In this document: positions 16,453-63,986 of the stretch, piece after piece
Layout: every line of letters begins with the position of its first letter
How positions within the stretch are numbered: position 1 is the first letter of the stretch
Source of the DNA: an uncultured Candidatus Saccharibacteria bacterium
GTDB taxonomy: Bacteria > Patescibacteriota > Minisyncoccia > Phycocordibacterales > UBA9973
Direction: 5' to 3'
DNA: 64,000 nucleotides
NCBI GenBank assembly: GCA_964563715.1
Contig: CAZLXA010000002.1
Location: 9,467 to 73,466 of the forward strand
Made by a program: the position numbers and the translations under genes
Notes under the pieces: model-generated
Told to the model about the DNA's origin: nothing
The model's input: only the letters and a program-made list of their open reading frames with translations
Database searches by the model: none

Positions 16453-16504
16453 TCATAGAGTTTATTCTTAAAAATCTATACAGTAAAAACTGCTTTAAAC
16501 TATA

Positions 16505-17257: not shown

Positions 17258-17367
17258 TTACAGTTTACCATTTTTGCTTCAATTTTCCTTAGTTTTTTGT
17301 TATACTAAAATCACAACTAAATAAGTTTTCCTAACCCCTATGAGATTTATTATAGGATATGGAATTT

Positions 17368-17507: not shown

Positions 17508-17512
17508 AATTT

Positions 17513-18253: not shown

Positions 18254-18313
18254 AAATTATTCTTAGCGATTAACTAATAATTTACGATTTGATAATTTAA
18301 TTATAACAGAGAA

Positions 18314-18787: not shown

Positions 18788-18790
18788 ATA

Positions 18791-19045: not shown

Positions 19046-19119
19046 ATGTATTATTGTAGCATTTTATATACCAAAAATAAATAGTTAAAATTACTAAAAA
19101 GTGGTAAAATACTTTTTAT

Positions 19120-19944: not shown

Positions 19945-19949
19945 TATTT

Positions 19950-20495
19950 ATGATAAAAGATGGTAAGGGTGGAGCAAATACAAAAACAGGTCTTGTTTTT
20001 GAAATAGAAAAAGATTTAGTTGTTTTTTTAAGTAAGCAAAAAGGATATACAACTCAAAAAATCGAAGGCTATAAACAATCATATTTTATTCTATACAACA
20101 AAGAACAAGTGGCGAGAACTTTTCCCAAGAATGATTTATATACATTTTTAGAAAAAGAACATAATCTTGATTGGGCTTCTATCCTGTCAAAAAAACTTTT
20201 ACCAGACGATGCCTTATATGTTGTTCTGAATAATACTGTTTATATTATTGAAAAGAAAAATCAACAAGTAGCTGGTTCTGTAGATGAAAAATTACAAACC
20301 TGTGATTTCAAAAGAAAACAATATAAAAAACTTTTTTCAAGATTAAATTTTGAAGTTGAATATATTTATCTTTTATCTGATTGGTTTAAACATCCATCTT
20401 ATAAAGATTATTTGGATTACATTATTTCAGTAGATTGTCAGTATTACTTTGAATATATACCCTTGCAGAAATTAGGACTTCCTATTCCTAAATAA
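19950..20495 (+). CDS. putative type II restriction endonuclease (PD-ExK)
   Basis: Starts 5 nt after the MTase. LPDD...(13 aa)...IIEKK fits the PD-(D/E)xK pattern. Confidence 0.45.
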   Translation: MIKDGKGGANTKTGLVFEIEKDLVVFLSKQKGYTTQKIEGYKQSYFILYNKEQVARTFPKNDLYTFLEKEHNLDWASILSKKLLPDDALYVVLNNTVYIIEKKNQQVAGSVDEKLQTCDFKRKQYKKLFSRLNFEVEYIYLLSDWFKHPSYKDYLDYIISVDCQYYFEYIPLQKLGLPIPK

Positions 20496-20504
20496 TTTTT
20501 ATAT

Positions 20505-21152
20505 ATGGCAAACGAACAAGAAATTAAAGATAACCTAAAAGCACTAGAAGATAGTATTTTTGAAGCTAAATCTGCTTATACACTTTGGAAAGTAATTGCA
20601 TACTCTAGGTCAAGTGGAGTTGTTCCGCTAGAATTAGCTGAAAAATATGTAAAATCTCAGCAAACAGCACCTGCTTTTTTTATTATGGCAGAAAGAACTG
20701 CTTTAATTTCTTTTGTTATTCTTATTCTACACCCCATAGATCAAGACTCTAGATCTTTTTCTCTTTTTAATGTTAATAAAGAAAAAACAAATGAATTTAT
20801 AAAACAAAACGAAAAAACAGTTGAAAATCTTAGATTAGTAAGAAATAAAGTATTTGCACACAAGGATAGTGTAGACGCTTTAAAAATTTTAGTTCCATCA
20901 ATAGAGATAATGGACAATTTTTTTGAAAATATGATTAGTTTTTATAATAATTTAACCAGTGAACACAACCAAAGCATAACTGATTTTAATGCTAGTTGTG
21001 ATAATCTTATTCACGAAATGGAGTATATGTTTATGAACTTAACAAGAGGAGAAAAAATTAGGCTAGAAGAAATAGATCTTGAATGGATGTGGGAAAAAAA
21101 TCCTAAAAAAATATCGGACATTTTTGATAGTAAGAATAATAAAAAATCTTAA
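20505..21152 (+). CDS. HEPN-domain protein (AbiU2-like), putative RNase / abortive-infection effector
   Basis: LRLVRNKVFAHKD contains the RNxxxAH form of the HEPN Rx4-6H motif. Helical composition. Starts 9 nt after the endonuclease ORF. Confidence 0.45.
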   Translation: MANEQEIKDNLKALEDSIFEAKSAYTLWKVIAYSRSSGVVPLELAEKYVKSQQTAPAFFIMAERTALISFVILILHPIDQDSRSFSLFNVNKEKTNEFIKQNEKTVENLRLVRNKVFAHKDSVDALKILVPSIEIMDNFFENMISFYNNLTSEHNQSITDFNASCDNLIHEMEYMFMNLTRGEKIRLEEIDLEWMWEKNPKKISDIFDSKNNKKS

Positions 21153-21337
21153 CAAGTTAATGATAGACAGTTCTACTCCTATAACGGTATAAATATTTTA
21201 GTAATTTTTTAATTTTAAGTATATTTTACAACCTCAGTTTTATTTATAAGTAAATACCCATAGGTAGATAAAACACTTTTCCATTTTAAAATCTCTATTT
21301 CAAAGGTGTTCCACTCTATGGACTGTAAGCTCACAAA

Positions 21338-21372
21338 TGAAAAAACCTGTCGCAAGATAGGTCTTTTCATTT
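21338..21372. repeat. hairpin repeat copy 1 (ATGAAAAAACCTGTCGCAAGATAGGTCTTTTCATTT)
   Basis: Near-identical to 22272-22307. Sits within a longer perfect stem at 21332-21375. Confidence 0.8.
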
Positions 21373-21490
21373 GTGATCCTAAGCGAGATATCTGCATATC
21401 TCGCGTCCGGGAGTCGAAAAGCTTTTGTGTCTTTTTTAAAATTCATTTTAAAAAAGTACAAAAGGTATACTGTTCTCGTAGAGAAAGATA

Positions 21491-21505
21491 TCCCGGTAGG
21501 GTCAC
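21491..21505. repeat. attR core (direct repeat)
   Basis: TCCCGGTAGGGTCAC, identical to the tRNA-Glu 3' segment. Confidence 0.8.
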
Positions 21506-21580
21506 AGATTGACGTATATATAAAATAATGTTATTGTCAAAACAATAAACGAATTTTGTTGTACCTAAAATAATTTAAGA

Positions 21581-22117
21581 ATGGAAAATGTTTTAGAAAT
21601 GATCCGCCAAAAAGCGGAAGAAGTTATTAGTGCTTATGTTAAACTGCCAGAAAGTCTTACAGAAAGAAATGGCCGTGAAGGTGGTTACCTTACAATCAAA
21701 AATATCCAATCAGGAATGATTGAAGCTATTTATTTGATTGGATGCATTCAAAAAGGTAAGGAAGAAAAATACCTTACCTTATCGCAGGAAAAAGCTAATC
21801 GTCTTTTCAGAGTTAGAATGTCAGGAGGAAACGATCGAACTTCTTGGGAGAGTAGAAATGAGGAAAAAATGGAATATGGTGGGGCTATCTTTTTTCCTGC
21901 TTGGGATGAAGAATACATATTATCATTTTCTGGTCTTCCTGAACTTGGAGATGAAGCTTGCATGTTCATTACTCAAGCATTAATTTCTTCAAAATCAGCT
22001 GAAACGATTGAGCTCGAAGCTTCGTCTATACTACATTCAATTTATTTCAGTAAGTTAGGAAGGCCCGGACAACCCCTATTCCATGCTTTGTTGGAAGCAT
22101 TTAAAATAAAAATTTAA
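21581..22117 (+). CDS. hypothetical protein (178 aa); faint GlcG/DUF336-like GGAI...SG...DE pattern
   Basis: ORF followed by a terminator hairpin. The motif resemblance is weak. Confidence 0.45.
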   Translation: MENVLEMIRQKAEEVISAYVKLPESLTERNGREGGYLTIKNIQSGMIEAIYLIGCIQKGKEEKYLTLSQEKANRLFRVRMSGGNDRTSWESRNEEKMEYGGAIFFPAWDEEYILSFSGLPELGDEACMFITQALISSKSAETIELEASSILHSIYFSKLGRPGQPLFHALLEAFKIKI

Positions 22118-29885: not shown

Positions 29886-30405
29886 TGATAGTATTATACA
29901 GTACTAAACATTAATAAACAATATTATGGTTAATAAACTGTAGTAATGTTTATATATCTTTTACGAATTAGTTATATTTGTTTAAAAATATTTAATTTGA
30001 TGATTTGAATTAGTTTAAAATAATTATATATTTTAATTCAAATAATACATTTGAAAATAATGTACCATTAAAAAATAAACTTATGAGATTAAATTCTAAA
30101 TTATTTTATATAAAATTATTTATAAACCATAGTATTATTTTTTACATATTATTAATAGAAATATATTGTTAAATATTATTAATTAAGATATAATTTAAAA
30201 TATAATATCATTTATGAATATTTACTCCAATCAAAAACAAATTTAAAAAAATAATTAATATCAAATAATTTTGCTTAACGAAAAAAGTAACTTAATAAAA
30301 CTACCAGATAAAATTCCACCTGAAGATGGAAGCTGGTTCTCAATGTTTCATACGATAGTAAAAGAATACAAATTAAAATTATCAATATTAAAAAAAGAAT
30401 ACAAA

Positions 30406-33400
30406 ATGAAAAATATATTTTTAAAACTAAATAACAAAACTATAAATATTAAAAGTAAGATATTTATAAAAACATTTGCACCAATTTTTGTCGCCTTTTT
30501 AATTTTTACATCTTTTTCTTTCCTCTCCCAAAAAGCATTCGCAGACGATGTTTCACTTAACTGGGGAAAAGGAATAAATGGATATTTATCTTTCGCAAAA
30601 GAATACATAGTAGCTGATTCTACTGGGAATATTTATATTGTGGGAAATTTTACTGGTACAGTTGATTTTGACCCAGGCGGAGGTGTATATAATTTAACCG
30701 CTGTAGGAAGTTATGATGCATATATTTTGAAATTAGATTCATTGGGAAATTTTTTATGGGCGAAAGCAATTGGTGGAGTAGATTATGATGTAGCAAATAT
30801 TATAGCTATTGACTCTACTGGGAATATCGCTGTTGCTGGAAATTTTGCTGGTACAGTTGATTTTGACCCAGATGCTAGTGTGTATAATTTAACCGCTGTA
30901 GGAAGTTATGATGCATATATTTTGAAATTAGATTCATTGGGAAATTTTTTATGGGCGAAAGCAATTGGTGGAGTAGATTATGATGTAGCAAATATTATAG
31001 CTATTGATTCTACTGGGAATATCGCTGTTGCTGGAAAATTTCAAAGTACAGTTGATTTTGACCCAGGTATTGGTGTATATAATTTAACTTCTTCGGGGAG
31101 CAATGATGCCTTTATTTCAAAGTTTGATTCATCGGGAAATTTTATATGGGCAAAAACAATTGGTGGAACAGGTGATGATGTAGCTAACTCTATTGTTGTC
31201 GAAGTAACAACTGGAAATATTTATATAGCTGGAAAATTTCAAAGTACAGTTGATTTTGACCCAGGTATTGGTGTATATAATTTAACTTCTACTTCAAGTG
31301 AGGATGCTTTTTTTGCAAAATTAGATTCTTCTGGAAATTTTGTATGGGCAAGAAGAATAGGTGGGGTAAATAATGATGTTGCTAGTAATATAGCTATTGA
31401 TTCTGCTGGTAATCTGGGTGTATCAGGTAATTTCGCTGGGACAGTTGATTTTGACCCAGGTGTTGGTGTTTATAACTTGAGTGGTTTTAATTCATACAAC
31501 AATCCATTTCTTTCAAAATTTGATTCATCGGGAAATTTTATATGGGCGAAAGTCTTTTACACAACAAATCATGCTTCTGTTGATTCTCTAGTATCAGATG
31601 CAAATAATAACTTTTATTTGGCGGGTTCATTTCAAGGGACCATGGATGCGAATCCTAATTCTGGTACAAAAAATCTTTCTGGTACAAGTCCTTCAAAAAA
31701 TTTTATTATTAAATTAGACACTTTAGGAAATCATATTTGGTCAAATACCTATAATGTAAGTAGAAGTTATATAACCATAGATTTAAGTGGGGATATTTTA
31801 GTTACGGGTCCTTTTTATGGTACAACTGATTTTGATCCAAGCGCTGGTGTCTTTAATTTAACCTCTGTAGGTGTTATAACCAATACTTATATAGTTAAAC
31901 TTTCACCAATTCCTTCAGATTTTATTCCAAATGCATTTACTTTCAACGACCAAATACTAAAAGCTGTAAATACTTCTTATGAATCGAATACTATTACATT
32001 GTCAGGATTAAATGAAGTTGTAGCTATTTCTATATCATCCTGTAGTAGTTCTATTTGTGAATATTCAATAAATAACGGAACATATACTTCAGTTCCTGGT
32101 ATTATAATAAGCGGGGATACTGTAAAGGTCCGACAAAAATCTTCTATCAATGATTCGACCACTACTGATTTAATTTTAAATATAGGTGGAGTTAGTGATA
32201 CATTTTCTGTAACTACAGACGACTGGACTAAACCTTTAATTTCTTCTTTTTCTGTCCCAGCAAAATCAACTTCATATATTATTCCTATAACCAATTTTGT
32301 TGCAACCGATGATCAGTTTGTTGCTGGGTACTTAATCACAGAATCATCAACTACTCCATCTATAAATTCTCCTGATTGGACAGTTACTCCTCCATCAACC
32401 TATCTTGTATTCACAAATGGACTAAAGACACTATATTCTTGGGCAAAGGATAATACAGATAGAATTTCAAACCCAATAAGTGCTCAAATTCTAGTTGATA
32501 CTTCACCTGTGGTTTCTACTTTTACTATTCCGTTAAATTATAATTCTGCAACAGTTCCTATTAATACTTTTAATGTTACTGATAATGTTGGTGTTGCAGG
32601 TTATATGGTTACAGAAAATCTGACTCCACCAAATATAAATGATTCAAGATGGACTGAGACTGCTCCCTCTTCGTATACGTTTGAAAATATAAATGACTCA
32701 GTACCGAGTACCTGGAATCAAAGGACAGCAGCTACTTTTTCAACATCATGGCGTACCATCGCTTCTTCGGCCGATGGGAATAAATTGGCTGCTGCTATTG
32801 GACAAATCGGTGGAGCTAGTAATTGTAGTTCACCAAGTTGTTATATATATACATCAACTGATGCTGGAAATACTTGGACCGCACGAACTAGTGCTGGCTC
32901 CCGTAATTGGTCAGGTATCGCTTCATCATCAGATGGAACAAAATTAGTAGCAGTAATTGGTGGGGATTATATTACCGGATACGTATATACTTCAATAGAT
33001 AGTGGAGCGACTTGGGTAGCCAGGACTGGAAATGGTTCTCTAAGATGGCACGATGTTACTTCGTCTTCGGATGGAACTAAATTGGCTGCCATAACAGGAG
33101 GGCGATATTATAATGGATCAATATATACTTCAATAAATAGTGGGGAAACATGGACAGCACAAGCTGGAGCAGGTTCACGTTATTGGATGTCAATAGCTTC
33201 ATCATCTGATGGTACAAAATTAGTAGCAAATCCCGGATATGGTTATATTTACACTTCAAATAATAGTGGGGTGACTTGGATAGAGAGAACAAGTTCTGGT
33301 ATACGTTCTTGGGTAGACGTGGCGTCTTCTGCTGATGGATTAAAATTAGTAGCGACTTCAGGAAATGGTTATATTTATACTTCAAATGATGGTGGGGCTA

Positions 33401-36400
33401 CATGGATAGAGAAAACAAGTTCTGGTATACGTAGCTGGGGCCAGGTTGCATCTTCGTCGGACGGAGTAAGGCTAATTGCGGCAACGAGTAATTCGGGATA
33501 TATATATTACTCAAGTGACTCGGGGACAACGTGGCTTGAGCAAGCATCAATGGGATTAAAGGAACGTGCTGGTGTTGCTTCCTCTTCTGATGGAACTAAA
33601 ATAGCTATCGGAGATAGATATGGAGATATATATACTTCCAAATTTGGGAATGAACTTCATGGTTGGGCTAAAGATTCAGAAGGGTTGGTGTCAAGTTCTA
33701 CAATATATTCAAATGATACAGTGATAATTGATTTTAATACTCCAGTAGTTACAGCATTTTCAATACCCACTAATTCATCTTCATTAACTGTTCCGATTAC
33801 AACTTTTACAGCGACCGATAATGTTGGAGTGACTGGATACATACTAACCGAAAGTCCTACAGTTCCACCGTCTAATGATATTGGTTGGACGACTGATGCT
33901 CCGGCGACATATACATTTTCTTCGTACGGGAATAAGACTTTATATGCCTGGGTAAAAGATGGGAATAATAGTATTTCAAATCCACTTTCAGCTTCAATAT
34001 TTCTTAATTCCGCTCCGTCTGTAACCTCTTTTGTAATTAATTCTGATTATAATTCTTTTACTATTCCAATCTCGACTTTCACTGCAACTGATGATACTCA
34101 AGTTACTGGATATAAAATAACGGAGAATAACGATGTACCGTCCCCATTTGATAATGGTTGGAGTGACACAGCTCCCACAAATTATACTTTTAGTATACAA
34201 ACAGATATTTCTCCTAAAAATTGGGTGCAAAAAACGAGTGATGCCAATAGGAGTTGGCAGGCAATAGCTTCCTCTTCTGATGGAACAAAAATTGTTGCAG
34301 TAGTAGGTGCAGATTTTAATTCTGGTTACATTTATACTTCAGATAATAGTGGAACTACATGGATAGAAAGAACAAATGCGGGACTACGTAAGTGGAAAAC
34401 TGTTGCTTCTTCTTCAGACGGAACAAAATTAGTAGCTGGTGCATATGACGGTTATGTGTATACTTCTGATGACTCGGGTGCTACCTGGATAGAAAGACAA
34501 CCTGAAGTTGGGAGAAAATTTAATTTTTACCGTCCAATCGTTTCTTCAGCCAATGGAACAAAATTGGCATTTGTTGAAAACATGTGTGTAAACCAAGGTA
34601 GATTATATACATCGACAGATGGTGGAGATACATGGACAAATAAAATTATTTCAGGTTCGCAAATTATTTCCTATTCGTCTGATGGTAATATATTGATTGC
34701 AGGTGATAATTATGGTGGTACAGGATGTACCAGTGGAACTAATGGGGGTTATATTTCTACTTCAACTGATAATGGTAATACTTGGACACAAAGAACCAGT
34801 GCTGGTTTACGAAAATGGAGTGCGGTGGCTTCTTCTTCAGACGGAACAAAACTATTTGCTACAGCTGATAAAGAAATTAATAGTCCTGGATATATATACA
34901 CATCTATCGACGGAGGGGTAACTTGGTTAGAAAGAGTATCGGCAGGCTCACATGAATGGAAATCAATTATTTCCTCATCGGATGGAACAAAATTAGTAGC
35001 TCAAGTTAGAGGGCAGAATGGTGCAGGAGATATTTATTCTTCGACAGACGGTGGAATTAATTGGAGTCTAAGAAATAGTAATAATTCATGGTATGGAGTG
35101 TCATTATCCGCTGATGGAAATAAATTAGCTACTATTGTTAACGGTGGATATATTTATACTTCAACTGCCATTTATACCGCCGAGGGTGCAAAAACTTTAT
35201 ATGCTTGGGCTAAAGATGAAAATGGTGGTGTTTCGAATCCATCTACCGGGCAAATAGTTGTCCATGTAAATCCTCCCACGTCCACAATTAATCCCCTTTG
35301 TGACATTTCAGAAAATAGATGTACTGCTTCAGGAATAGTTTCTAGTCCACAGCAAGTTTATGCTGTTCAATTAATTTCTGGTATTTCTTCAGAAGCTATT
35401 TCCGATATTGAAATTTCGATAAAAGATGATACTTTGGATAAATGGTTTTCGAACGGAGTATTTTCTTCAGATGTTGAAATATATTCTACAATAACTAATA
35501 CGACGGAGTGGTCATATGGTACAAAAACTTGGGCATATGATTTATCTACACTTCCTCTAACTATTGGTAATGTTTATAAACTTAATGTAAAGGCTACAGA
35601 TACATTTGGTAGTGTTGAAAACCCTGTTTCGACAACATCTTTCGTTTTTTCGAGTTTAACACTAGATAACGCCGCTCCTGTTATTACTCTGACCGGGTTA
35701 AATCCGATGAACGTAACACTAGGTCAATCATATTCTGAGCCGGGGGCAGATGCTGTGGATGCTATTAGTGGCCCACGTCCGGTAAGTATTTCTGGTACTG
35801 TTAACAATAATGCTCTTGGGTCCTATACTATTACGTATACCGCGACAGATATGACAGGGAATATTGGAACAGCTACGAGAACAGTAAATATAATTCCATC
35901 TCCAACAGTGTCTTTTGATACTGTTTCTAATAACGGAGATGAAAGTGCGAGTCCTTATGATGCTATGGTAAGTATTTCACGTGCTGATGCTCAAAATACA
36001 ACTGTTGAATATATTGTCTCAGGAACAACAACCAATGCCGATCATACACTTGTCAGTGGAACTGTTACTTTCTTGGCAGGAGAAGTATCGCAAGAGATAT
36101 CCATTCCAATAATTGACGACATTCTAAAAGAATTAAATGAGACAGTAATCTTGACCCTTTCGAATCCTATTAATGGGATATTAGGAACTAATGTGTCATT
36201 TACTTACACAATTAATGATAATGATATTGCGTCAGGAATAGAATTTTCAACTGGCGAATCCTCTAACCTAGAAAGTCTTAATATGGTAGATATTCCGATT
36301 TCATTAGCTAGTATCTCTGGTACAAACACGACAATTGATTATACTATTTCTGGAACAGCGACAAGTGGAGATGATTATTACTTAGATGAAGGGACAGCAA

Positions 36401-39195
36401 CTATTATTGCAGGAGAAACAACAACGAATATTAATATTGAGATTATAGATGATATTCTGAAGGAAGAAAATGAGACTGTTATTATTGCATTATCTAATCC
36501 TACAAATTCAACTCTCGGATCAAATAGCACTTATACTTATACCATTACAGATGATGATATCTTACCCTCAATTGGTTTTGATGTTGTCTCAAGTGAAGGA
36601 GATGAAAATGTTACAACCGTAAATATTCCAGTTTCAATATCCTCTCCTTATGCGGAAGATGTTACTTTCACTTATTCGGCGACAGACGGGACCGCCACGG
36701 GTGGAGATGTTGACTACTCACTTGTAAGTGGAACTGGTACAATAATAGCAGGGGAAACTTCAACTGAAATAACTATCGTTATATTTGACGATGATATTTC
36801 TGAAGAAACTGAAACATTATTAGTTACTATTTCAAACCCTGTTAATGCAACACTTGGAAAGAACATTAGTCATATTTATTCTATCTTAGATAATGAAATT
36901 TCAATTACAAGTGTGACTGGAAATAATATTAAAGCAACAAGTGCAAAAATAGTTTGGACTACAGCAGATTTTACTGATGGATTAATAGAATATGGAATTA
37001 TTGCTCCAGGGAATGAAGGAGCATATAATCTTCAAAAATCTAATGAAGATAAAATATTAGACCATAGTTTCTATTTAGGAAATTTAACTCCTGAAACAAC
37101 TTATTATTTTAGAACAACTTCTACTAATCTAAATAATGAGACGACAGTTTTTGAGTCAGAATTTGCAACAACACCTGGACCAGTAATTAGCGATGTATTA
37201 TCAAGTGAAATAACTGATACTACCGTACTAATTACTTGGACAACAGACATTCCTACGACTTCACAAGTAAATTATGGAATAGATATAAATCTCGCGGATT
37301 TTGATAGGTCGGGCTCTGATGAATTAGTTACAACCCACTCAGTTTTACTTACAAACCTTGCTTCGGCTAATACTTATTACTATTTAGTGGCTGGAATTGA
37401 TGCTGATACAAATGAAACGGAAGATGCAAATAATGGTGATTATTATATTTTTATTACAGGGGATGACCAAACTCCTCCAATACTATCTGAAATATCAGTT
37501 CCTATTATAACTTCAACTCAAGCAGCAATTGTTTGGTTGTCCAATGAGCCGGTTGATGGTAAGGTAATGTATGGAACAAATGTAGGAGTTTATGAAAATG
37601 AGACTGATTTAATATTAACACCACTCACAAATCATTTAGCAATAACGGGAGAATTGTCGGAGACAACAACTTATTTCTATGTAGTGGAATCTTCAGATGC
37701 AAATGGAAATACAACTACTTCTGAAGAACACTCCTTTGTAACACAAGCGCCAGGGGAAGTCATTGTTTATAGAGGCGGAGGTAGTGGAATAATGGGTGTA
37801 GCTCAAGAAATGTATGACTTACTCCTTAATGAAAATAAAATTTACAAAGATAGAATTGGGTCTATTGAAAATGAGCCAGTAATTTCAAATATTCAAATTT
37901 CTAATGTAACGGCTTTTGGAGCCACAATTTCATTTGAAACAGATAAAGACACAATAGGATTTATAGATTATGATAGAAATACAAACTATAGTCTTTTGGC
38001 GGCGGATAAAAATTGGTCCAAAAGTCATTCGATTATTTTACATGGTCTAAATTTTGGAACAGATTATTTTTTCAAAATTTCAGCCATGAATAAATCTAAT
38101 CTAAGAAGTGTTTCCGAAGAGCAAAACTTTAAAACGAAATTTTTTAGTGAGAATATTGATCAGTTAACAAAAGTTGAAAACATTGAGCAATTTCAGAAAG
38201 AGTTAGAGTCAACTATTGAGTCAATATTACCTTCGATTGTACCCCCATTTATAGATAAACCAGTTGTTTCTGATATTACCGAGAATAGTGCAATTATTTC
38301 ATTTCGTACAAATGTTAGTGCTTATCCAATAGTTAGCTTCACTCCAGAAAGTTCTTATGACGCAAACAAAGAAAATTCTTACAATGGTGAAATATCAGAT
38401 ACAACAAAAAAAGGTATATCCCATAAACTTAATTTAGTTAATCTAAAACCTAATACAAAGTATCATTTCATTGTAAAAGCTTTCTCCTTACCACAAGTTA
38501 TAGGTAAATCAGATGATTTCACTTTTATGACCAAGGCTTCTAAAATTCAAGGATCAATTATTGACATTAAAAAAGATTCATTTATTGTTGTCTGGAACAC
38601 AGATGAACCAACATCATCAATTGTAGAGTATAAGAATATAAATTCTGGCAGAGTATCTCGTATTGCAGATAGTACAATAAATAGTTCCCACTCACTTAAG
38701 ATTGAAAACCTTACTCCTGGTACTCAATACCAAGTTACAATTTCTGGAATAAATAGTAAGGGTAATATTATAGAGGGAGGAAGTCCTCTTAATATTAAAA
38801 CTTCAACAGATAATATTCCTCCTACAATTTCAGGTATAAAAGTTGATAGTTCTTTAGTTGCAGGAAGAGAAGATAAAGTTCAAACAATAATTTCATGGCA
38901 GACTGATGAACCTTCTACCTCTGCTGTCTATTATGAAGAGGGTTCTGGTTCGATAGATTCACCTCTCTCAAGTAAACAAGAGGACTCTGAATTAACTAAA
39001 AATCATGTTGTTATATTAAATTCCCTAAAGCCTGGCACGGTTTATAGATTTTCTGTTGAATCTATGGATGGGGCAGATAATATAAACAAACAACCAGTTA
39101 GAACCATAATTACACCTAAAAAATCAGAATCAATTATTGATGTAATCTTTAAAAATTTTGATGACACATTTAATTTTATTAATAATGTTAGATAA
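30406..39195 (+). CDS. giant secreted multidomain surface protein (SBBP repeats, 2 Asp-box/BNR propellers, Ig-like repeats, DUF5011, 3 Calx-beta, 7 FN3-like)
   Basis: Signal peptide at the ATG at 30406 (…FSFLSQKAFA). GNxxVAGxFxGTVDFDPG repeats, 12 SxDxGxTW Asp-boxes in two blocks, DDIxKExNET Calx-beta motifs and repeated IxWxTDxP...YG FN3-like units. Confidence 0.85.
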   Translation: MKNIFLKLNNKTINIKSKIFIKTFAPIFVAFLIFTSFSFLSQKAFADDVSLNWGKGINGYLSFAKEYIVADSTGNIYIVGNFTGTVDFDPGGGVYNLTAVGSYDAYILKLDSLGNFLWAKAIGGVDYDVANIIAIDSTGNIAVAGNFAGTVDFDPDASVYNLTAVGSYDAYILKLDSLGNFLWAKAIGGVDYDVANIIAIDSTGNIAVAGKFQSTVDFDPGIGVYNLTSSGSNDAFISKFDSSGNFIWAKTIGGTGDDVANSIVVEVTTGNIYIAGKFQSTVDFDPGIGVYNLTSTSSEDAFFAKLDSSGNFVWARRIGGVNNDVASNIAIDSAGNLGVSGNFAGTVDFDPGVGVYNLSGFNSYNNPFLSKFDSSGNFIWAKVFYTTNHASVDSLVSDANNNFYLAGSFQGTMDANPNSGTKNLSGTSPSKNFIIKLDTLGNHIWSNTYNVSRSYITIDLSGDILVTGPFYGTTDFDPSAGVFNLTSVGVITNTYIVKLSPIPSDFIPNAFTFNDQILKAVNTSYESNTITLSGLNEVVAISISSCSSSICEYSINNGTYTSVPGIIISGDTVKVRQKSSINDSTTTDLILNIGGVSDTFSVTTDDWTKPLISSFSVPAKSTSYIIPITNFVATDDQFVAGYLITESSTTPSINSPDWTVTPPSTYLVFTNGLKTLYSWAKDNTDRISNPISAQILVDTSPVVSTFTIPLNYNSATVPINTFNVTDNVGVAGYMVTENLTPPNINDSRWTETAPSSYTFENINDSVPSTWNQRTAATFSTSWRTIASSADGNKLAAAIGQIGGASNCSSPSCYIYTSTDAGNTWTARTSAGSRNWSGIASSSDGTKLVAVIGGDYITGYVYTSIDSGATWVARTGNGSLRWHDVTSSSDGTKLAAITGGRYYNGSIYTSINSGETWTAQAGAGSRYWMSIASSSDGTKLVANPGYGYIYTSNNSGVTWIERTSSGIRSWVDVASSADGLKLVATSGNGYIYTSNDGGATWIEKTSSGIRSWGQVASSSDGVRLIAATSNSGYIYYSSDSGTTWLEQASMGLKERAGVASSSDGTKIAIGDRYGDIYTSKFGNELHGWAKDSEGLVSSSTIYSNDTVIIDFNTPVVTAFSIPTNSSSLTVPITTFTATDNVGVTGYILTESPTVPPSNDIGWTTDAPATYTFSSYGNKTLYAWVKDGNNSISNPLSASIFLNSAPSVTSFVINSDYNSFTIPISTFTATDDTQVTGYKITENNDVPSPFDNGWSDTAPTNYTFSIQTDISPKNWVQKTSDANRSWQAIASSSDGTKIVAVVGADFNSGYIYTSDNSGTTWIERTNAGLRKWKTVASSSDGTKLVAGAYDGYVYTSDDSGATWIERQPEVGRKFNFYRPIVSSANGTKLAFVENMCVNQGRLYTSTDGGDTWTNKIISGSQIISYSSDGNILIAGDNYGGTGCTSGTNGGYISTSTDNGNTWTQRTSAGLRKWSAVASSSDGTKLFATADKEINSPGYIYTSIDGGVTWLERVSAGSHEWKSIISSSDGTKLVAQVRGQNGAGDIYSSTDGGINWSLRNSNNSWYGVSLSADGNKLATIVNGGYIYTSTAIYTAEGAKTLYAWAKDENGGVSNPSTGQIVVHVNPPTSTINPLCDISENRCTASGIVSSPQQVYAVQLISGISSEAISDIEISIKDDTLDKWFSNGVFSSDVEIYSTITNTTEWSYGTKTWAYDLSTLPLTIGNVYKLNVKATDTFGSVENPVSTTSFVFSSLTLDNAAPVITLTGLNPMNVTLGQSYSEPGADAVDAISGPRPVSISGTVNNNALGSYTITYTATDMTGNIGTATRTVNIIPSPTVSFDTVSNNGDESASPYDAMVSISRADAQNTTVEYIVSGTTTNADHTLVSGTVTFLAGEVSQEISIPIIDDILKELNETVILTLSNPINGILGTNVSFTYTINDNDIASGIEFSTGESSNLESLNMVDIPISLASISGTNTTIDYTISGTATSGDDYYLDEGTATIIAGETTTNINIEIIDDILKEENETVIIALSNPTNSTLGSNSTYTYTITDDDILPSIGFDVVSSEGDENVTTVNIPVSISSPYAEDVTFTYSATDGTATGGDVDYSLVSGTGTIIAGETSTEITIVIFDDDISEETETLLVTISNPVNATLGKNISHIYSILDNEISITSVTGNNIKATSAKIVWTTADFTDGLIEYGIIAPGNEGAYNLQKSNEDKILDHSFYLGNLTPETTYYFRTTSTNLNNETTVFESEFATTPGPVISDVLSSEITDTTVLITWTTDIPTTSQVNYGIDINLADFDRSGSDELVTTHSVLLTNLASANTYYYLVAGIDADTNETEDANNGDYYIFITGDDQTPPILSEISVPIITSTQAAIVWLSNEPVDGKVMYGTNVGVYENETDLILTPLTNHLAITGELSETTTYFYVVESSDANGNTTTSEEHSFVTQAPGEVIVYRGGGSGIMGVAQEMYDLLLNENKIYKDRIGSIENEPVISNIQISNVTAFGATISFETDKDTIGFIDYDRNTNYSLLAADKNWSKSHSIILHGLNFGTDYFFKISAMNKSNLRSVSEEQNFKTKFFSENIDQLTKVENIEQFQKELESTIESILPSIVPPFIDKPVVSDITENSAIISFRTNVSAYPIVSFTPESSYDANKENSYNGEISDTTKKGISHKLNLVNLKPNTKYHFIVKAFSLPQVIGKSDDFTFMTKASKIQGSIIDIKKDSFIVVWNTDEPTSSIVEYKNINSGRVSRIADSTINSSHSLKIENLTPGTQYQVTISGINSKGNIIEGGSPLNIKTSTDNIPPTISGIKVDSSLVAGREDKVQTIISWQTDEPSTSAVYYEEGSGSIDSPLSSKQEDSELTKNHVVILNSLKPGTVYRFSVESMDGADNINKQPVRTIITPKKSESIIDVIFKNFDDTFNFINNVR
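30691..31080 (+). repeat. near-perfect 195-bp tandem duplication inside the giant gene (one SBBP unit)
   Basis: 30691-30838 matches 30886-31033 with a single mismatch seen (GACTCT vs GATTCT). Period is 195 nt, or 65 codons. Confidence 0.85.
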
Positions 39196-57790: not shown

Positions 57791-57814
57791 TAGATTTTGT
57801 TGTATATTAAAAAG

Positions 57815-59629
57815 ATGCACTCAAGTGAAATAAGAAACAGGTTTTTAAAATTTTTTCAAAATAGAGAACACGCTCTTGTCCCTTCGGCGTCCCTAGTTAC
57901 CACAACCGAAGCAGGTGAAATGGACGCAACACTATTTAATACAGCAGGAATGCAACCATTTGTTCCATATCTTTTAGGAGAACCCCATCCAAAAGGAGTA
58001 AGATTGGTTAATGTCCAAAAATGCTTAAGAACTATTGATCTAAGTGAAGTGGGTGATAATACGCATAATACATTTTTTGAAATGATGGGGAATTGGTCGC
58101 TTGGGGATTATTTTAAAAAAGAAGCAATAACTTGGAGTTATCAATTTCTCACTTCAAAAGAAGAAGGATTAGGGTTAGATGTTAATCGTCTGTACGTAAC
58201 TGTTTTTTCTGGAAATGAAAAAGTTGAGCGAGACATAGAATCAGTTGAAGTCTGGAAATCATTAGGAATACCAGATCATCGAATATATTACAAGAATTCA
58301 AAATCTAATTGGTGGAGTGCAGGTTTGAATTCTCCAGCCGGACCAAGTACAGAAATGTTTTACGACATCACCGGAGAATTAGGAGATTTAACTCCAGATG
58401 AATTTAATAAATACGAAGATGAGCAGAAAGTCGTTGAAATATGGAATGATGTTTTCATGATGTATAAACTTGAAAATGGTGAAATCAATTCTGAGCTTCC
58501 CCAGAAAAATATTGACACTGGTGCTGGACTTGAACGCATAACTACGATGGTTCAAGGCAAGCAAAGTGTTTATGAGACAGATTTATTTTTACCAATAATT
58601 CGAAAAATAGAAGAACTTTCAGGATTGGAGTATGGAAACAAACGCGATGATGAATATGTAAAAAATGGAGATCACTGCTGGGTTGAAACAAGAAGAAAAA
58701 TTAGAATTGTAGCAGACCATATACGAACTGCAGTTTTTATAATTGCTGATGGAGTTACATCTTCAAATACTGGCCGAGGATATATTTTACGTAGAATTAT
58801 TCGTCGAGCAGTAAGATATTCAGATTTGATTTCTCTTAAACATGGGTCTTTACTTAATCTGGCAGAAATAATAATTGATGAATATAAAGAAGTATATCCT
58901 GAATTATTAGAGAATATAAATATTATTATAAAAGAAATAAAAGAAGAAGAAAATAAATTTCGCCTAACTCTTGAGAATGGTTTAAGAGAATTTGAGAAAG
59001 GTGTGGATGCTTTTGATTTATATCAGAGTTATGGTTTTCCAATCGAGCTGACCGAAGAACTAGCAAAGGAGAAAGGAGTAAAAATCGACAGAGAAGAATT
59101 CGATAAAAAATTAAAAGAACATCAAGTTCTTTCGCGAACATCTAGTGCTGGAATGTTTAAGGGCGGGTTAGCTAATCATAGTGATAAAACTATTCAGCTT
59201 CACACAGCTCATCATCTACTATTAGCTGGATTACAGGCGGTCGTGGGTCTGGAAATCAAACAAAGGGGAAGTAATATAAATGAAGAACGGTTGAGGATTG
59301 ATTTTCTTTGCGACCATAAGTTAACTGATATTGAAAAAAATGAAGTTGAAAATTGGGTTAATGATAAAATAAATAGGAACCTAAGTGTTATTAGAAAAGA
59401 AATGCCACTTCTCGATGCTCAAAAAATTGGAGCGGAAATGGAATTTGGAGCGAAATACCCAGAAGTCGTCTCTATATATTTTGTTCAAGATGAAAATGGT
59501 AATTATGTTTCAAAAGAATTTTGTGGCGGGCCCCATGTTGAAAAAACAGGTGAACTTGGTAATTTCAAAATTCTTAAAGAGGAAGCTGTGGCTTCAGGCA
59601 TTAGACGTATTAAAGCCACTCTTTCCTAA
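57815..59629 (+). CDS. alaS: alanine--tRNA ligase, short form (no C-Ala domain)
   Basis: MHSSEIRNRFLKFFxxxxH, FEMMGNWSLGDYFK, and HTAHHLL plus CGGPHV editing/SAD motifs. 604 aa from the ATG at 57815. Confidence 0.9.
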   Translation: MHSSEIRNRFLKFFQNREHALVPSASLVTTTEAGEMDATLFNTAGMQPFVPYLLGEPHPKGVRLVNVQKCLRTIDLSEVGDNTHNTFFEMMGNWSLGDYFKKEAITWSYQFLTSKEEGLGLDVNRLYVTVFSGNEKVERDIESVEVWKSLGIPDHRIYYKNSKSNWWSAGLNSPAGPSTEMFYDITGELGDLTPDEFNKYEDEQKVVEIWNDVFMMYKLENGEINSELPQKNIDTGAGLERITTMVQGKQSVYETDLFLPIIRKIEELSGLEYGNKRDDEYVKNGDHCWVETRRKIRIVADHIRTAVFIIADGVTSSNTGRGYILRRIIRRAVRYSDLISLKHGSLLNLAEIIIDEYKEVYPELLENINIIIKEIKEEENKFRLTLENGLREFEKGVDAFDLYQSYGFPIELTEELAKEKGVKIDREEFDKKLKEHQVLSRTSSAGMFKGGLANHSDKTIQLHTAHHLLLAGLQAVVGLEIKQRGSNINEERLRIDFLCDHKLTDIEKNEVENWVNDKINRNLSVIRKEMPLLDAQKIGAEMEFGAKYPEVVSIYFVQDENGNYVSKEFCGGPHVEKTGELGNFKILKEEAVASGIRRIKATLS

Positions 59630-59683: not shown

Positions 59684-60862
59684 ATGGGATTTTTATTTGG
59701 AAATAAAAAAGAAAAACTAATTGCAATTTTTGATATTGGTTCTGGTAGTGTTGTGGGAGCAATTGTTAAAATACCTAATGATGGTATTGGAATACCAGTC
59801 ATTATAAAATCGATTGATACTGAAATTAAATTTCAAGAAAATTTTGATTTCAATTTATTTATAAATGATATGGTCACAGCTTTACACGCAACAGCTTCTT
59901 CTTTATATAACAAAAAAGTTGGTGCTCCCGATGAAATATATTGTGTCTTAGCTTCTCCGTGGTATTTATCTGAAACTAGAACAATTAAATTATCTCGCGA
60001 TAAACAATTTGTTTTTAATAAAAAATTAGCAAATGAATTAATTCAAAAAGAAGTTGCAAATTTAGCTACAGTCTATGGGGACAAATACAATACCGATGAA
60101 AGTGCTCCAGAAATGATTGAACAACACACTATGGCTGTCGCTCTTAATGGTTACTCCATAAATCAGCCGTTAGGAATTAAATGTAATTCTCTTAAAATGG
60201 AAATGATAATTTCTTTGTCGCCCAAATTATGTTTAGATAAAATTAGACAAACCTTATCAAAAACATTTCATCATACTAAAGTCAATTTCTCATCTTTTAC
60301 TCTAATGTCATATTTAGCTGTGCGCGATAAATATATTAAACAGGATTCTTATCTGTTATTGGATATTAGAGGAGAAATTACCGATGTCGGAATTGTGACA
60401 AAAGGTGTATTGAAGGCGGTATTATCTTTTCCTTTTGGCAAAAAAGCTTTCTTTAAATATATGTGTACAAAAATGGAAATTGAATTACGCGATGCCAAGG
60501 AGTTATTTAAACTATATTCTGATGATAATTTATCGGAAGAATTTAAGAAAAAAGTTATTCCTCTTTTTGATTCAATAAAAAATTCATGGAGTGAAGCTTT
60601 TCGACAGTGTATTAACACACTTCCTCGTTCACTTATTCTCCCAAATACGATTTTCCTAACAGCTGATGATGATATTAAAAATTGGTTTACCGGATTACTT
60701 CAAACTGATGAATATATTAAATCAATGGTTTCTGATCATAAATGTAGTGTTATAACATTAGATGGGCCTGATTTTTTAAATATGTGTGATGTTAAAGATG
60801 GTATTTGTAATCCATTTTTAATGATCGAATCAATCGCCATTATGAGAAAAATTGGTAAATAA
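59684..60862 (+). CDS. actin-fold ATPase-like protein (FtsA/PilM-like), divergent
   Basis: Phosphate-1-like IAIFDIGSGSVVGAIV and phosphate-2-like LLLDIRGEITDVGIV. Confidence 0.45.
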   Translation: MGFLFGNKKEKLIAIFDIGSGSVVGAIVKIPNDGIGIPVIIKSIDTEIKFQENFDFNLFINDMVTALHATASSLYNKKVGAPDEIYCVLASPWYLSETRTIKLSRDKQFVFNKKLANELIQKEVANLATVYGDKYNTDESAPEMIEQHTMAVALNGYSINQPLGIKCNSLKMEMIISLSPKLCLDKIRQTLSKTFHHTKVNFSSFTLMSYLAVRDKYIKQDSYLLLDIRGEITDVGIVTKGVLKAVLSFPFGKKAFFKYMCTKMEIELRDAKELFKLYSDDNLSEEFKKKVIPLFDSIKNSWSEAFRQCINTLPRSLILPNTIFLTADDDIKNWFTGLLQTDEYIKSMVSDHKCSVITLDGPDFLNMCDVKDGICNPFLMIESIAIMRKIGK

Positions 60863-62228
60863 AATGGTTAAAAGAATTTTAGAGGATATTAAAATAGTAA
60901 AAAGGCCAGAATCTTATAAACAAGAAGATAGACAGCTTGATTTACCAACTAAAGAAATAAAAAAAGTTGAACAAGATTATCAGGGAGAAATTAAAAAATC
61001 AAAAATCGACGAATATTTTAGAACTAAAATTTCGAGCGAAAAAAGAATTAACAGAACACCACAAATAAAAAAAGAAAAAAAGATAATTAGTAGACCTGTG
61101 GTTATTATTTTTCTTATTTGTCTTATATTGGGTGCTATTTATTGGGCGGGAAATTTTTTTCAAAAAGCTAATATTGAAATAACTTCAAAACATCAGCCTA
61201 TTTCTTATAATAAGAAGAATTTTACTTCAACCGTAGACGATGATGTAAATACTATTGATTTTGAAATAATGATTGTTTCTGACCAAAAAATAAAAAATTT
61301 TACATTAACAGAACCGGAAAGTGTTTCTATTAAATCAACAGGGATCGTAACTTTTTATAACGAATTTGCAACAACCCCACAAAAATTATTAGCTGGAACA
61401 TTTTTGGCTGATGATACGGGTAAAACATATAAAACTAATGAAATAATAACAATACCGGGATATATACTGGATAATAATAAAAAAATAATTCCCGGCCAAG
61501 CAACTGCCAATATTAGCGCTTTTCTACCAGGTGAAGCTTATAATGGTTCACCCGAAGATTTTTATATAACCTCTTTTAAAAATACTACTAAGTATAATAA
61601 AATATACGCAAAAATAAAGACACCACTAGAAGGTGGGATGAGTGGTATGGTTTATACCTTAAATGAAGATGATAAAACAAATATTAAAACTTTTGCTGAA
61701 ACGATATTTAAAAATGATTTATTGGGAAAAGTTAATGCATTGGTTCCGCCTGGATATATTTTATATCCAAATGCTACGAATTTTTCATATAAAATCAAAG
61801 ATAATGCTATGTCAAAAACATCTGAAGCTGAAATCATAATCGAAGGAGAATTATCAGTAATTTTACTAAATGAAAAAAGCTTGGTTAAAAATATAATTAA
61901 AGTTTCACTTCCTGAAATTACAAAAGAAGAAATAAATGAAATTAAAATTTTAAATATAAATAAGCTTGTGTTTAACTTTTCAAATGTGAATCAATTAATT
62001 ACGAAAGATTTAAATACAATTTCTTTTTCATTAACAGGGGATATTGAGGCTCTTTGGGTACCAAATACAGAAATATTAAAATCGAAATTATTGGGAGTGC
62101 ATAAAGATAATGTCTTGGCAATTTTTCGTCAAGACCCAGGAATATCATCAGCTTTAGTGAAATTATTTCCTCCATGGCAAAAATATATTCCTAGTGATAT
62201 ATCTAAAATAAATATAATCTTAAATTAA
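60852..62228 (+). CDS. bitopic membrane protein (458 aa), overlapping the upstream actin-like gene
   Basis: Basic ~90-aa N-terminus, a single TM helix (VVIIFLICLILGAIYWAG), and a large extracytoplasmic domain. 11-nt overlap with the previous ORF. Confidence 0.5.
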   Translation: MVNKMVKRILEDIKIVKRPESYKQEDRQLDLPTKEIKKVEQDYQGEIKKSKIDEYFRTKISSEKRINRTPQIKKEKKIISRPVVIIFLICLILGAIYWAGNFFQKANIEITSKHQPISYNKKNFTSTVDDDVNTIDFEIMIVSDQKIKNFTLTEPESVSIKSTGIVTFYNEFATTPQKLLAGTFLADDTGKTYKTNEIITIPGYILDNNKKIIPGQATANISAFLPGEAYNGSPEDFYITSFKNTTKYNKIYAKIKTPLEGGMSGMVYTLNEDDKTNIKTFAETIFKNDLLGKVNALVPPGYILYPNATNFSYKIKDNAMSKTSEAEIIIEGELSVILLNEKSLVKNIIKVSLPEITKEEINEIKILNINKLVFNFSNVNQLITKDLNTISFSLTGDIEALWVPNTEILKSKLLGVHKDNVLAIFRQDPGISSALVKLFPPWQKYIPSDISKINIILN

Positions 62229-62450
62229 TTACTTATAAGTTTGGCTTCTAAGTGGTATTGACTATATCGCATAAATGTGCTACTATACAATGATAAGTAG
62301 TTCTTTGATAATTTCGTCTTTTTCATTGGAAACAGTGTTTTAAATATCAATTTTTTGGTATATAGAATACTGTTTCCAAAAATTTCATTTTGGTTCAGTA
62401 AAAATTGAATAATTTAACTCATAAATAATTAACAATTTAAACCTTACCTT

Positions 62451-63986
62451 ATGAAAACCAAATTTTTCTTTTTGACGATCATCGTGGCTTTATGCTTTTC
62501 CACTCAAATAAAAGCACAACAAATTAATTCAGTTGAAACATATATTCAAAGCGTTGGAGTTTCCGGCGCTATGATTAGTGTTACTGCCTACGGTAACACA
62601 ACATACTATTGCTCAATCGTTTATGGCCATGGTGGCTACGGATTAACAGAATTTGAAACGGGAACATATTTTTTGGACCCCAATGTTGAGTGGACGATTC
62701 CGCTTGAAAATTTACTACCAGGTACAACTTACGTGTATATGGTAAAAGTATCCTGGGATAACTACAATTACACTATAACCAGTAGTATCGAAAATTTTTC
62801 GACTTGCGAATGTCCCATGTATGCTAGCTTACAAAATACTTCAAGCACTCAATGCAGTGCTCAACTCGAAGTTATTGAACCGAATGACCCACTTTATAGC
62901 TATCAATGGCTACGAAATGGAGAAATAATTCCTGATGCAAACGATGCTGAGTATAATGCAACTACATCCGGAAATTATTCATTCAGGGCAAGTAGTCTCT
63001 ACTGTGATGTTTCTTCAGATCCAGTATATTTCGAAATCTCAAAGCCTGAATTAATTCTCGTTGCTGATAGTAATTTATGCGCAGGACAAAATACTATGGT
63101 ATTTGCGGGAAATTATGATGAATATCTATGGGAACCTACTAATTTGTTCGATGATCCACATTCGTCACAAACAGTTTTCCGTCCGATTGAAAGCACTGTT
63201 ATAATATTAACAGGCATTTCTAATGGATGTACAGAAGTAAAACAGCAATTCATAGCTATTCATGAACTGCCCCAATTGGGAATATCTTTTCTTGATTCAG
63301 TTTGTATTGAATCAAATGAGCCAATTCAATTGATCGGTTTGCCGTTAGGAGGGACTTTTTTGGGACAAGGAGTTTTTAATCATGGAAATGATTATGCTAC
63401 ATTTAATGCCAACCAGGTAATTTCTTCCGGTATTTACCCAATAGAGTACGTATATCATGACCAATACGGTTGTGGTGGTAGTATTTTCAAACAAATTGTG
63501 GTTACAGAAGAACCCGTTGTGAATGAAATGCTTTCAAAGAACAACAATCTGTATGTTTATGGAATATTCCCGAATCAAATTTTGATTTCTATTAATGGGC
63601 AAAACTATTATTCCTTTCAGCAAAATGAAACGGAGGCAATATTTCCTAACGTGCCAGTTTCAAATGGTGACTATGTTACCATTATGGCAATGGGAACGCA
63701 TGGGTGTTTTATAACCAAAGAATTCCGTTACGGGCTTGGTTATAACGAGGCTGAAAAAGATGAAATTGAAATGTATCCGAATCCATTTTCGGATATCCTT
63801 ACGGTAGAAATACCGGATGGCAAGTATGAAGTTGAAGTTATTGATTTGACTGGCAATATTGCCCAAATGAAATCTGCAACTAGAAATTTCATAATAGAAC
63901 GAAACAATCTTCCTGTTGGTATATACTACTTGAGAATTATTTCAAGTGAAAAAATACTAACCAAAAAAATCCAGGTAATTAATTAA
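62451..63986 (+). CDS. secreted protein with T9SS type-A C-terminal sorting domain
   Basis: Signal peptide ending FSTQIKAQQ, Ig-like YQWLRNGEIIPDANDAEYNATTSGNYSF, and C-terminal MYPNPFSDILTVEI...LPVGIYYLRI...KKIQVIN. Confidence 0.75.
   Translation: MKTKFFFLTIIVALCFSTQIKAQQINSVETYIQSVGVSGAMISVTAYGNTTYYCSIVYGHGGYGLTEFETGTYFLDPNVEWTIPLENLLPGTTYVYMVKVSWDNYNYTITSSIENFSTCECPMYASLQNTSSTQCSAQLEVIEPNDPLYSYQWLRNGEIIPDANDAEYNATTSGNYSFRASSLYCDVSSDPVYFEISKPELILVADSNLCAGQNTMVFAGNYDEYLWEPTNLFDDPHSSQTVFRPIESTVIILTGISNGCTEVKQQFIAIHELPQLGISFLDSVCIESNEPIQLIGLPLGGTFLGQGVFNHGNDYATFNANQVISSGIYPIEYVYHDQYGCGGSIFKQIVVTEEPVVNEMLSKNNNLYVYGIFPNQILISINGQNYYSFQQNETEAIFPNVPVSNGDYVTIMAMGTHGCFITKEFRYGLGYNEAEKDEIEMYPNPFSDILTVEIPDGKYEVEVIDLTGNIAQMKSATRNFIIERNNLPVGIYYLRIISSEKILTKKIQVIN

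Follow-up and report, generated by a model that had tools for sequence, protein, structure and literature searches.

An uncultured Paceibacterium (Patescibacteria) carries in its chromosome a gene that is best read as encoding a cargo-type adhesin of the type IX secretion system (T9SS), which has settled and been kept in a lineage where no T9SS is expected. The gene occupies positions 62451–63986 of the 64,000-nucleotide (nt) stretch of DNA that we analysed as a whole and call the window (assembly GCA_964563715.1, contig CAZLXA010000002.1, positions 9,467 to 73,466, deposited as an uncultured Candidatus Saccharibacteria bacterium), and its product ends in a type-A C-terminal sorting domain (CTD) of the T9SS. 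With a probability of about 0.6, we favour the reading that this is a genuine Paceibacteria chromosomal gene for an adhesin that was acquired horizontally from a Bacteroidota-type donor and retained, its CTD now being uncoupled from the T9SS.

A first-pass annotation of the window had marked an open reading frame (ORF) within 62229–63986. The frame is real and lies on the plus strand, running from an ATG at 62451 to a stop codon at 63984–63986; its product is 511 amino acids (aa) long, and the region upstream of it (62229–62450) is intergenic. The gene and its leader contain the following features, in which model-based assignments come from hidden Markov models (HMMs) or AlphaFold2 (AF2).

62258–62286, plus strand: promoter-like site (TTGACT, 17-nt spacer, TACTAT), a consensus match only; the same site as 1756–1784 of locus L001
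62326–62379, plus strand: 54-nt near-perfect hairpin within the ~165-nt leader of the CTD gene, from folding and strain conservation
62451–62519, plus strand: signal peptide, aa 1–23, with predicted signal peptidase I (SPI) cleavage at IKA↓QQ, from hydrophobicity and reading of the sequence
62520–63485, plus strand: four predicted beta-rich modules, boundaries approximate
63486–63740, plus strand: penultimate seven-strand beta-sandwich, aa 346–430, from the AF2 model of aa 346–511 (strands at model residues 11–81)
63771–63983, plus strand: T9SS type-A CTD, aa 441–511, from HMMs, matches to solved CTDs and AF2

The four N-terminal modules are predicted to comprise an FN3-like span (aa 24–118), an immunoglobulin (Ig)-like span (aa 119–197) and two Cys-containing Ig_7/PKD_6-like spans (aa 198–275 and 276–345). 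Across aa 24–345, Pfam gave only faint matches (Ig_2 at aa 135–181 and Pur_ac_phosph_N at aa 65–118), and no single model reached threshold in the N-terminal modules of the 511-aa protein. A full-length AF2 model built from three sequences was unreliable, with a predicted local distance difference test (pLDDT) score of 39 and values below 50 in the module region.

The C-terminal end is much better defined. The first-pass annotation had likened the last ~75 aa to a T9SS type-A CTD, and both relevant profiles agree: at the extreme C-terminus, aa 441–509 of 511 match the complete PF18962 (Por_Secre_tail) profile of Pfam (positions 1–75 of 75; 39.2 bits against a cut-off of 27), and the NCBIfam model TIGR04183 gives 39 bits (cut-off 23; positions 1–69 of 72). 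One allele of the gene (P0002, 41.4 bits) and a more distant homologue (P0003, 32.0 bits) likewise exceed the CTD cut-off. A profile made from 19 C-terminal sequences matched solved T9SS CTDs, namely 8glk_D, the CTD of F. johnsoniae NucA (E = 4e-13), 8glj_D, mirolase (8qb1) and RgpB (5hfs), and the single-sequence alignment to 8glk_D runs end to end and places KK opposite KK. Both 8glk and 8glj stem from a study that trapped type-A substrates on the SprA–PorV translocon (PMC10994853). The expected motifs are present, comprising YPNPF, GxY (in VGIYYL) and a lysine near the C-terminus (in TKKIQVIN); the P-N-P, G and G-x-Y columns are invariant in the 19 aligned CTDs. The near-C-terminal lysine is the only conserved CTD residue that contacts PorV (PMC10994853).

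Structure prediction is consistent with these matches. The AF2 model of aa 346–511 has a mean pLDDT of 84.6, rising to 90–96 in the CTD, and consists of two seven-strand beta-sandwiches, the second of which is the CTD (strands at aa 440–509). This agrees with the 3+4 beta-sandwich fold given for CTDs (PMC11285876). A fold search with the two-domain model returned mostly generic tandem Ig/FN3 receptors, with PorZ (5m11) ranked fourth; because these generic matches swamped the search, we relied on the sequence-profile matches to solved CTDs instead. Judged by sequence, the tail thus qualifies as a full member of TIGR04183/PF18962 and a bona fide T9SS type-A CTD.

The contig that carries this gene belongs to the Paceibacteria, in line with the Patescibacteria-like character that the first-pass annotation had given its remainder. 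We searched the alanyl-tRNA synthetase (AlaRS, 57797–59629) against 185,579 species genomes and considered the best 80 loci, all of which come from Patescibacteria-type metagenome-assembled genomes (MAGs). Their labels include Nomurabacteria, Paceibacterota, Parcubacteria and Minisyncoccia, many third-party annotation (TPA) entries named 'Saccharibacteria' and several plain 'bacterium'; one is titled 'Gammaproteobacteria' and is evidently mislabelled. AlaRS identity is 99% for the closest locus (L013), followed by 83, 80, 78 and 76%, and descends to ~50%. The enzyme is short (610 aa), ends with the tRNA_SAD domain and has the same length across related Paceibacteria loci. At 10328–12159, the window also contains four tandem small T4SS_pilin genes (PF18895), whose products each combine a signal peptide with a hydrophobic helix at the C-terminus. 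Because one of the assemblies that contain the CTD gene, JGI 3300059473, is a Lake Mendota 20-year time-series co-assembly, we regard the organism as a freshwater Paceibacterium.

Translation signals in the window are unusual. A Shine–Dalgarno-like motif precedes 3 of 51 genes, and in many genes TATAAT lies 6–10 nt ahead of the start codon, a pattern suggestive of leaderless translation or translation independent of Shine–Dalgarno motifs. We considered a missing motif as a marker of foreign origin and rejected it, since the backbone itself so seldom has one.

A T9SS tail is unexpected in this lineage, and the gene lies close to the end of the window. The first-pass annotation had therefore offered a chimeric join at 62229–62450 as one explanation, that is, a Bacteroidota fragment joined to a Patescibacteria contig through misassembly or bin contamination. 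The somewhat atypical codon usage and GC content at third codon positions (GC3) of the gene would fit such a join, as would the position of its homologue P0003 at the very edge of its own contig (41.9% GC there against 32.7% elsewhere). However, an exact-protein look-up retrieved the gene from five independently assembled contigs that derive from several samples (Logan SRR12261223, -24, -25 and -27, and JGI 3300059473), and all five have p458 (a 454/458-aa protein) on the left and infA on the right, with identical junctions on both sides. The sequence beyond 64 kb, which had been singled out as a check, consists of housekeeping genes of the same lineage: the longer contigs continue from infA into rpmJ, rpsM, rpsK and rpsD, and L001 adds rpoA, rplQ, rplM, rpsI and grpE. 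The downstream infA and rpsM are 85–90% identical to those of the Paceibacteria locus L007, and the flanking intergenic sequence, including the infA promoter, is conserved with relatives.

Divergent alleles fill the same slot in three other assemblies, namely L006 (77% aa identity, infA next), L013 (the locus with 99% identical AlaRS) and L138 (JGI 3300020048). Apparent gene splits in L013 and L138 were considered as frameshifts, a possibility that we rejected; the breaks are runs of N. Because the same junctions recur in independent contigs and divergent alleles occur at one site, a comparison of assembled contigs rather than reads, we reject the chimera, which is effectively refuted already.

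Comparison with relatives identifies the gene as an insertion. The order AlaRS–p392–p458–infA–rpsM is conserved in ~58 of the best 80 related loci, and p458 ends within ~300 bp of infA in ~55 of these; this marks the gene as a cassette that was inserted specifically in this lineage. In the closest species without the gene (L007, AlaRS 83% identical), the gap between p458 and infA measures 72 bp. The infA promoter (TTGACTAAAAAT...TTATAT) has been retained in the window species and is now downstream of the inserted gene. We envisage that the cassette entered between the conserved Paceibacteria gene p458 and this promoter, and that it would be self-contained, comprising a promoter-like site, a ~165-nt leader, the gene and a terminator-like hairpin.

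Its regulatory parts show signs of conservation. The promoter-like sequence is conserved in L013 and L138. The leader (62287–62455) has a minimum free energy of -37.1 kcal/mol (z = -4.75), and 0 of 200 shuffled sequences folded as well. Its hairpin is kept in the same two strains with one compensatory exchange of an A-U for a U-A pair and one G.U to A-U change, and the hairpin has no Rfam match. Possible roles are those of a regulatory element, an attenuator or a terminator for the upstream gene. Many other genes of the window seem almost leaderless, in contrast to the ~165 nt that precede the CTD gene. Directly past the window end, a GC-rich hairpin and T-run (L001, ~3501–3540) resemble a terminator; this feature was read from the sequence, and an automatic terminator scan did not list it.

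In L010, an unrelated Cys-rich gene (14298–16030), apparently frameshifted, lies at the same junction, for which reason we consider the space between p458 and infA a permissive insertion site. That gene belongs to a Cys-rich CxxC-repeat family of ~450–570 aa, with another member beside hpf in L009 (8815–10524), and the family may be mobile. The block alaS–p392–p458–infA is itself deeply conserved in ~58 Paceibacteria species (loci L007–L086). Neither p392 nor p458 (59684–62228) has a Pfam match, and p458 has an N-terminal hydrophobic segment. A scan of viral_contigs recovered no family members of the CTD gene, and there is therefore no hint of a phage vehicle.

Several lines of evidence point to a Bacteroidota-type donor. 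Composition alone is a mild indicator: the gene has 35.8% GC against 32.4 ± 3.2% in the other 50 genes (z = 1.07) and a GC3 of 28.9% against 21.7 ± 3.8% (z = 1.9); its synonymous-codon likelihood (z = -1.9) is the third worst of 51 genes, and its tetranucleotide distance falls within the top 9% of backbone windows. The codon and tetranucleotide comparison that the first-pass annotation had proposed thus finds the gene mildly atypical, by ~1–2 standard deviations. A line-level argument from the same source, based on 40–45% GC in two 60-nt lines, does not discriminate, as the 60-nt lines of the gene range from 28 to 43% GC and 20% of them have at least 40%, compared with 18% of backbone lines.

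The modules are more telling. An exhaustive profile search of representative proteins returned 48,777 proteins at E ≤ 1e-3, and the top matches were proteins of 2–8 kaa that repeat the module of aa ~127–356 between 15 and 70 times. Of the ten giant proteins that we looked up, four were informatively named: one from a 'Bacteroidetes bacterium' MAG, one from Maribacter litopenaei, one described as membrane-anchored and one, from an unclassified bacterium, annotated with a 'T9SS type A sorting domain'. Pfam scans of two of the giants found Ig_7 (CHU_C-associated), PKD_6, HYR and SprB domains. Module identity to P0052 is 23–35%, and therefore we do not name a specific donor; the searches brought up no closely similar sequence from Bacteroidota, so that our inference of the donor phylum draws on the domain types and on the residue after the predicted signal peptide cleavage site (see below).

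The CTD is also rare in the lineage. We ran the 19-sequence CTD HMM against 1.38 Mb of Paceibacteria DNA, with 51 Bacteroidota-like loci as a positive control. In the Paceibacteria DNA, the only credible matches were this gene and its L013 allele, and one further ORF scored marginally (E = 0.005); in the control, 78 ORFs matched and all 51 loci were represented. The many CTD paralogues expected of genomes with functional T9SS cargo are thus not seen in the 1.38 Mb. Searching an index of 5.8 billion proteins with the CTD only (85 aa) gave seven candidates, none of which scored, and a metagenome_contigs scan with the family alignment produced generic CTD matches only (25–43% identity over aa 371–511) and no new family members. 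The nearest CTDs outside the family (P0158–P0160) lie in contexts that are not Patescibacteria-like, for example adjoining succinate dehydrogenase genes, and hence give no sign of wider CTD use in the candidate phyla radiation (CPR). Bacteroidota are reported to be among the relatively frequent donors or partners of Patescibacteria in horizontal gene transfer (HGT; PMC12455944). Of the three explanations that the first-pass annotation had put forward, horizontal acquisition from a Bacteroidota-type donor fits best, given the modules shared with giant adhesins, the rarity of the CTD in the lineage and the empty site in relatives. On this evidence the gene was probably acquired from such a donor.

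The N-terminus adds a further link to the Bacteroidota. It reads MKTKFFFLTIIVALCFSTQIKA↓QQ, and the hydrophobic core and AxA-like site give it the form of a Sec/SPI signal peptide, as judged by eye and by hydrophobicity; the signal peptide in the first-pass annotation is thus upheld on these grounds. In all full-length alleles, Gln directly follows the predicted cleavage site (IKA↓QQ in the window, TRA↓QI in P0002 and IKA↓QI in L013). A Gln at position +1 after the SPI site, the 'Q-rule', is reported as Bacteroidetes-specific (PMC5837995). It is missing from all ~5 other signal peptides predicted in the window.

We therefore picture a protein that would be exported through Sec and probably cleaved by SPI before the Gln. 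In the mature product, some five beta-sandwich modules of Ig/FN3-like type would precede an intact T9SS type-A CTD, and the protein may act as a small multi-Ig adhesin, either displayed or released.

The gene is maintained under purifying selection. Between the window and L006 alleles, the ratio of nonsynonymous to synonymous substitution rates (dN/dS) is 0.17 at a dS of 0.83 for the whole gene. In reliable comparisons, the modules outside the CTD and signal peptide have values of 0.04–0.21, and the CTD has values of 0.22–0.38; the penultimate domain shares 86–93% aa identity between alleles (dN/dS 0.07–0.08). Both complete alleles (window and P0002) have an uninterrupted ORF, and the readable sequence of L013 and L138 is free of stop codons.

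The alleles also recombine. Compared with L013, aa 1–118 have a dS of 0.02 and the remainder has a dS of 0.4–1.9, with backbone genes (p392, p458 and rpsM) at 0.06–0.16; this contrast along the gene indicates intragenic recombination with more distant alleles. Intragenic recombination is common in surface proteins, and the mosaicism between strains fits a surface-exposed interaction protein.

Only one other family member was found, MBU0612163.1 (P0003, GCA_018813625.1), which NCBI annotates as 'T9SS type A sorting domain-containing protein [Patescibacteria group bacterium]'. Overall identity is 30–33%, with 48% in the CTD against 21–30% in the N-terminal modules. Like the window protein, P0003 has a C-terminal Ig module, a beta-sandwich and a CTD in the same order, and the motif YPNPFSDIL(N/T)VEIPDGKYEV is almost identical in the two. 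Unlike the window gene, it sits at another locus, beside hpf and fmt, and has Arg in place of the conserved C-terminal Lys. These neighbours are 59% (hpf) and 66% (fmt) identical to those of the Paceibacteria locus L009. Because P0003 lies at a contig edge (L005, 1–1505) with a GC content far above that of its neighbours (41.9% compared with 32.7% for the rest of the 5.3-kb contig), we regard its position as less certain; P0003 may represent another recent acquisition, or the contig join could be in doubt.

Set beside characterized systems, the window protein resembles the type-A CTD cargo of Bacteroidota (F. johnsoniae NucA, RemZ and RemA; P. gingivalis RgpB; T. forsythia mirolase) in its Sec signal with Gln at +1 and in its C-terminal ~70-aa TIGR04183/PF18962 domain, with PNP, GxY, the near-terminal Lys and a predicted seven-strand sandwich. 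It differs in residing in a Patescibacteria chromosome, where an outer membrane and a T9SS are not expected. Moreover, it is the sole CTD gene in the sampled DNA of its lineage, unlike the Bacteroidota-like control loci with at least one each. In view of the Patescibacteria setting and the lone CTD gene, secretion by SprA/PorV and cleavage by PorU are unlikely in cis.

Its aa ~127–356 correspond to the Cys-containing Ig-like module of giant Bacteroidota adhesins (Ig_7, PKD_6, HYR and SprB-type repeats), but the window protein is 511 aa long and has ~3–4 modules, each 23–35% identical, rather than 15–70 repeats. It also shares features with a 2,974-aa protein encoded at 30271–39195, in that both are rich in beta-sandwiches, multidomain and presumably surface-exposed for cell–cell contact. 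The larger protein differs in having five Pur_ac_phosph_N/FN3-like domains, three Calx-beta domains and one Bact_surface_Ig-like domain, with no Por_Secre_tail, and is presumably the native giant surface protein of the lineage.

What, then, might the tail do in this cell? Pfam scans of ~50 ORFs, covering the 64-kb window and 5 kb beyond it, found no T9SS or outer-membrane families. Patescibacteria are regarded as monoderm and are not known to have a T9SS. The T9SS, for its part, is assigned to the phylum Bacteroidota (PMC10994853). For these three reasons, the CTD most likely does not serve as a signal for outer-membrane translocation or attachment in this cell. It may instead persist as a folded terminal beta-sandwich that aids binding or envelope retention. 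The repurposed tail that the first-pass annotation had listed as its third explanation is in this respect a reasonable corollary of acquisition: uncoupling from the T9SS follows sensibly from the setting, and the proposal stays at the level of inference.

Some observations weigh against an acquired, maintained and uncoupled adhesin. Between alleles, no other part of the gene is under weaker constraint than the CTD (dN/dS up to 0.38), a pattern that could also reflect a domain in gradual decay because the cell has no further use for it. In addition, AF2 gives no confident structural model for aa 1–345; the compositional deviation is modest, at ~1–2 standard deviations; the best matches outside the family are just 23–35% identical per module, with no close Bacteroidota donor among them; and the absence of T9SS and outer-membrane genes was checked in just ~69 kb of the genome.

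An alternative, which we consider unlikely, is that the CTD still works as a ligand for the T9SS of another cell. An epibiont on a Bacteroidota host would use it to dock to PorV/SprA or to the attachment complex. All fold-specifying motifs and the near-C-terminal Lys are retained, the CTD is under purifying selection (dN/dS 0.22–0.38) and is the best-conserved part in comparison with the distant P0003 (48%), allele mosaicism resembles that of host-interaction proteins, and Bacteroidota are reported among the more frequent HGT partners of Patescibacteria (PMC12455944). However, nothing points to the identity of a host. Folding constraint would explain the conserved motifs equally well, the gene is rare even among close relatives, and P0003 has Arg instead of the conserved Lys. 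Moreover, the site at which the CTD binds lies within the SprA pore, and substrates come into this pore from its periplasmic side (PMC10994853), so that access from outside is doubtful. The fuller version of this idea, a captured Bacteroidota T9SS cargo adhesin whose secretion signal has been reused as a host-docking ligand for PorV, SprA or the attachment complex, is slightly less probable again.

No more probable than docking is a neutral passenger, a recent acquisition that has no function in the recipient and is still to be lost. The gene is confined to a narrow clade, its CTD evolves faster than the other domains, and Patescibacteria genomes do hold transferred genes (PMC12455944). Against this, dN/dS is 0.17 at a dS of ~0.8, no readable allele contains a stop codon (the breaks being runs of N) and the leader hairpin has been conserved with a compensatory change; useless DNA also tends to be purged from streamlined genomes.

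We give somewhat less credence to an old, vertically inherited Patescibacteria surface family whose terminal beta-sandwich is merely CTD-like, through ancestry or convergence, with no Bacteroidota donor involved. Such a family could account for a 33%-identical homologue at a different locus of another Paceibacteria contig and for the failure to find a close Bacteroidota homologue. Yet ~58 relatives lack the gene at the syntenic site, and the 1.38 Mb of Paceibacteria DNA yielded just one additional CTD match, a marginal one (E = 0.005). The HMM match spans the full length and exceeds the curated cut-offs; the modules are of a kind typically seen in giant adhesins, the named ones being from Bacteroidota; Gln occupies +1 in all alleles; and both family members exceed their own contigs in GC.

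Very improbable is a CTD-recognizing export or anchoring machinery of the lineage's own, be it a T9SS or an analogue, with this protein as its cargo: the CTD is intact and conserved and the genome was seen in part only, but Pfam found no T9SS or outer-membrane family among the ~50 ORFs, a single-cargo system would be unusual given the several CTD proteins of Bacteroidota-like loci (78 ORFs in 51 loci), and the T9SS is described as a Bacteroidota system (PMC10994853).

Elsewhere, the window contains a probable integrated island (14532–22117), which also holds a PD-(D/E)XK-like protein and has the following features.

14532–14606: tRNA-Glu, overlapping the end of the serine recombinase gene
14566–16275, minus strand: serine recombinase gene
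17328–17449: LOOT RNA (RF03000), 70.9 bits
19120–19944: N6/N4 DNA methylase
20505–21152: AbiU2 HEPN protein

Outside the island, a 242-aa protein encoded at 4133–4861 has a weak match to an IS200-like Y1 transposase (27.3 bits).

Within the literature library that we searched, we found no paper that links T9SS CTDs to CPR/Patescibacteria, although the NCBI pipeline has already labelled one such protein. T9SS tails are taken as a hallmark of Bacteroidota, and it is easy to write them off as contamination when they turn up in MAGs from other phyla. The present case is a securely placed and evolutionarily maintained T9SS tail in a Patescibacteria chromosome, and a clean example of a surface-protein cassette that moved across phyla into a streamlined genome. 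Should the CTD be merely a leftover fold, the finding would be a modest curiosity; if the CTD did serve in docking, the gene would point to the phylum that hosts this uncultured freshwater lineage of Patescibacteria. More broadly, the finding raises the question of what role a secretion tail has once it is parted from its machinery, and whether genes of this kind preserve a trace of the ecological partners of Patescibacteria, the hosts of which are mostly unknown.

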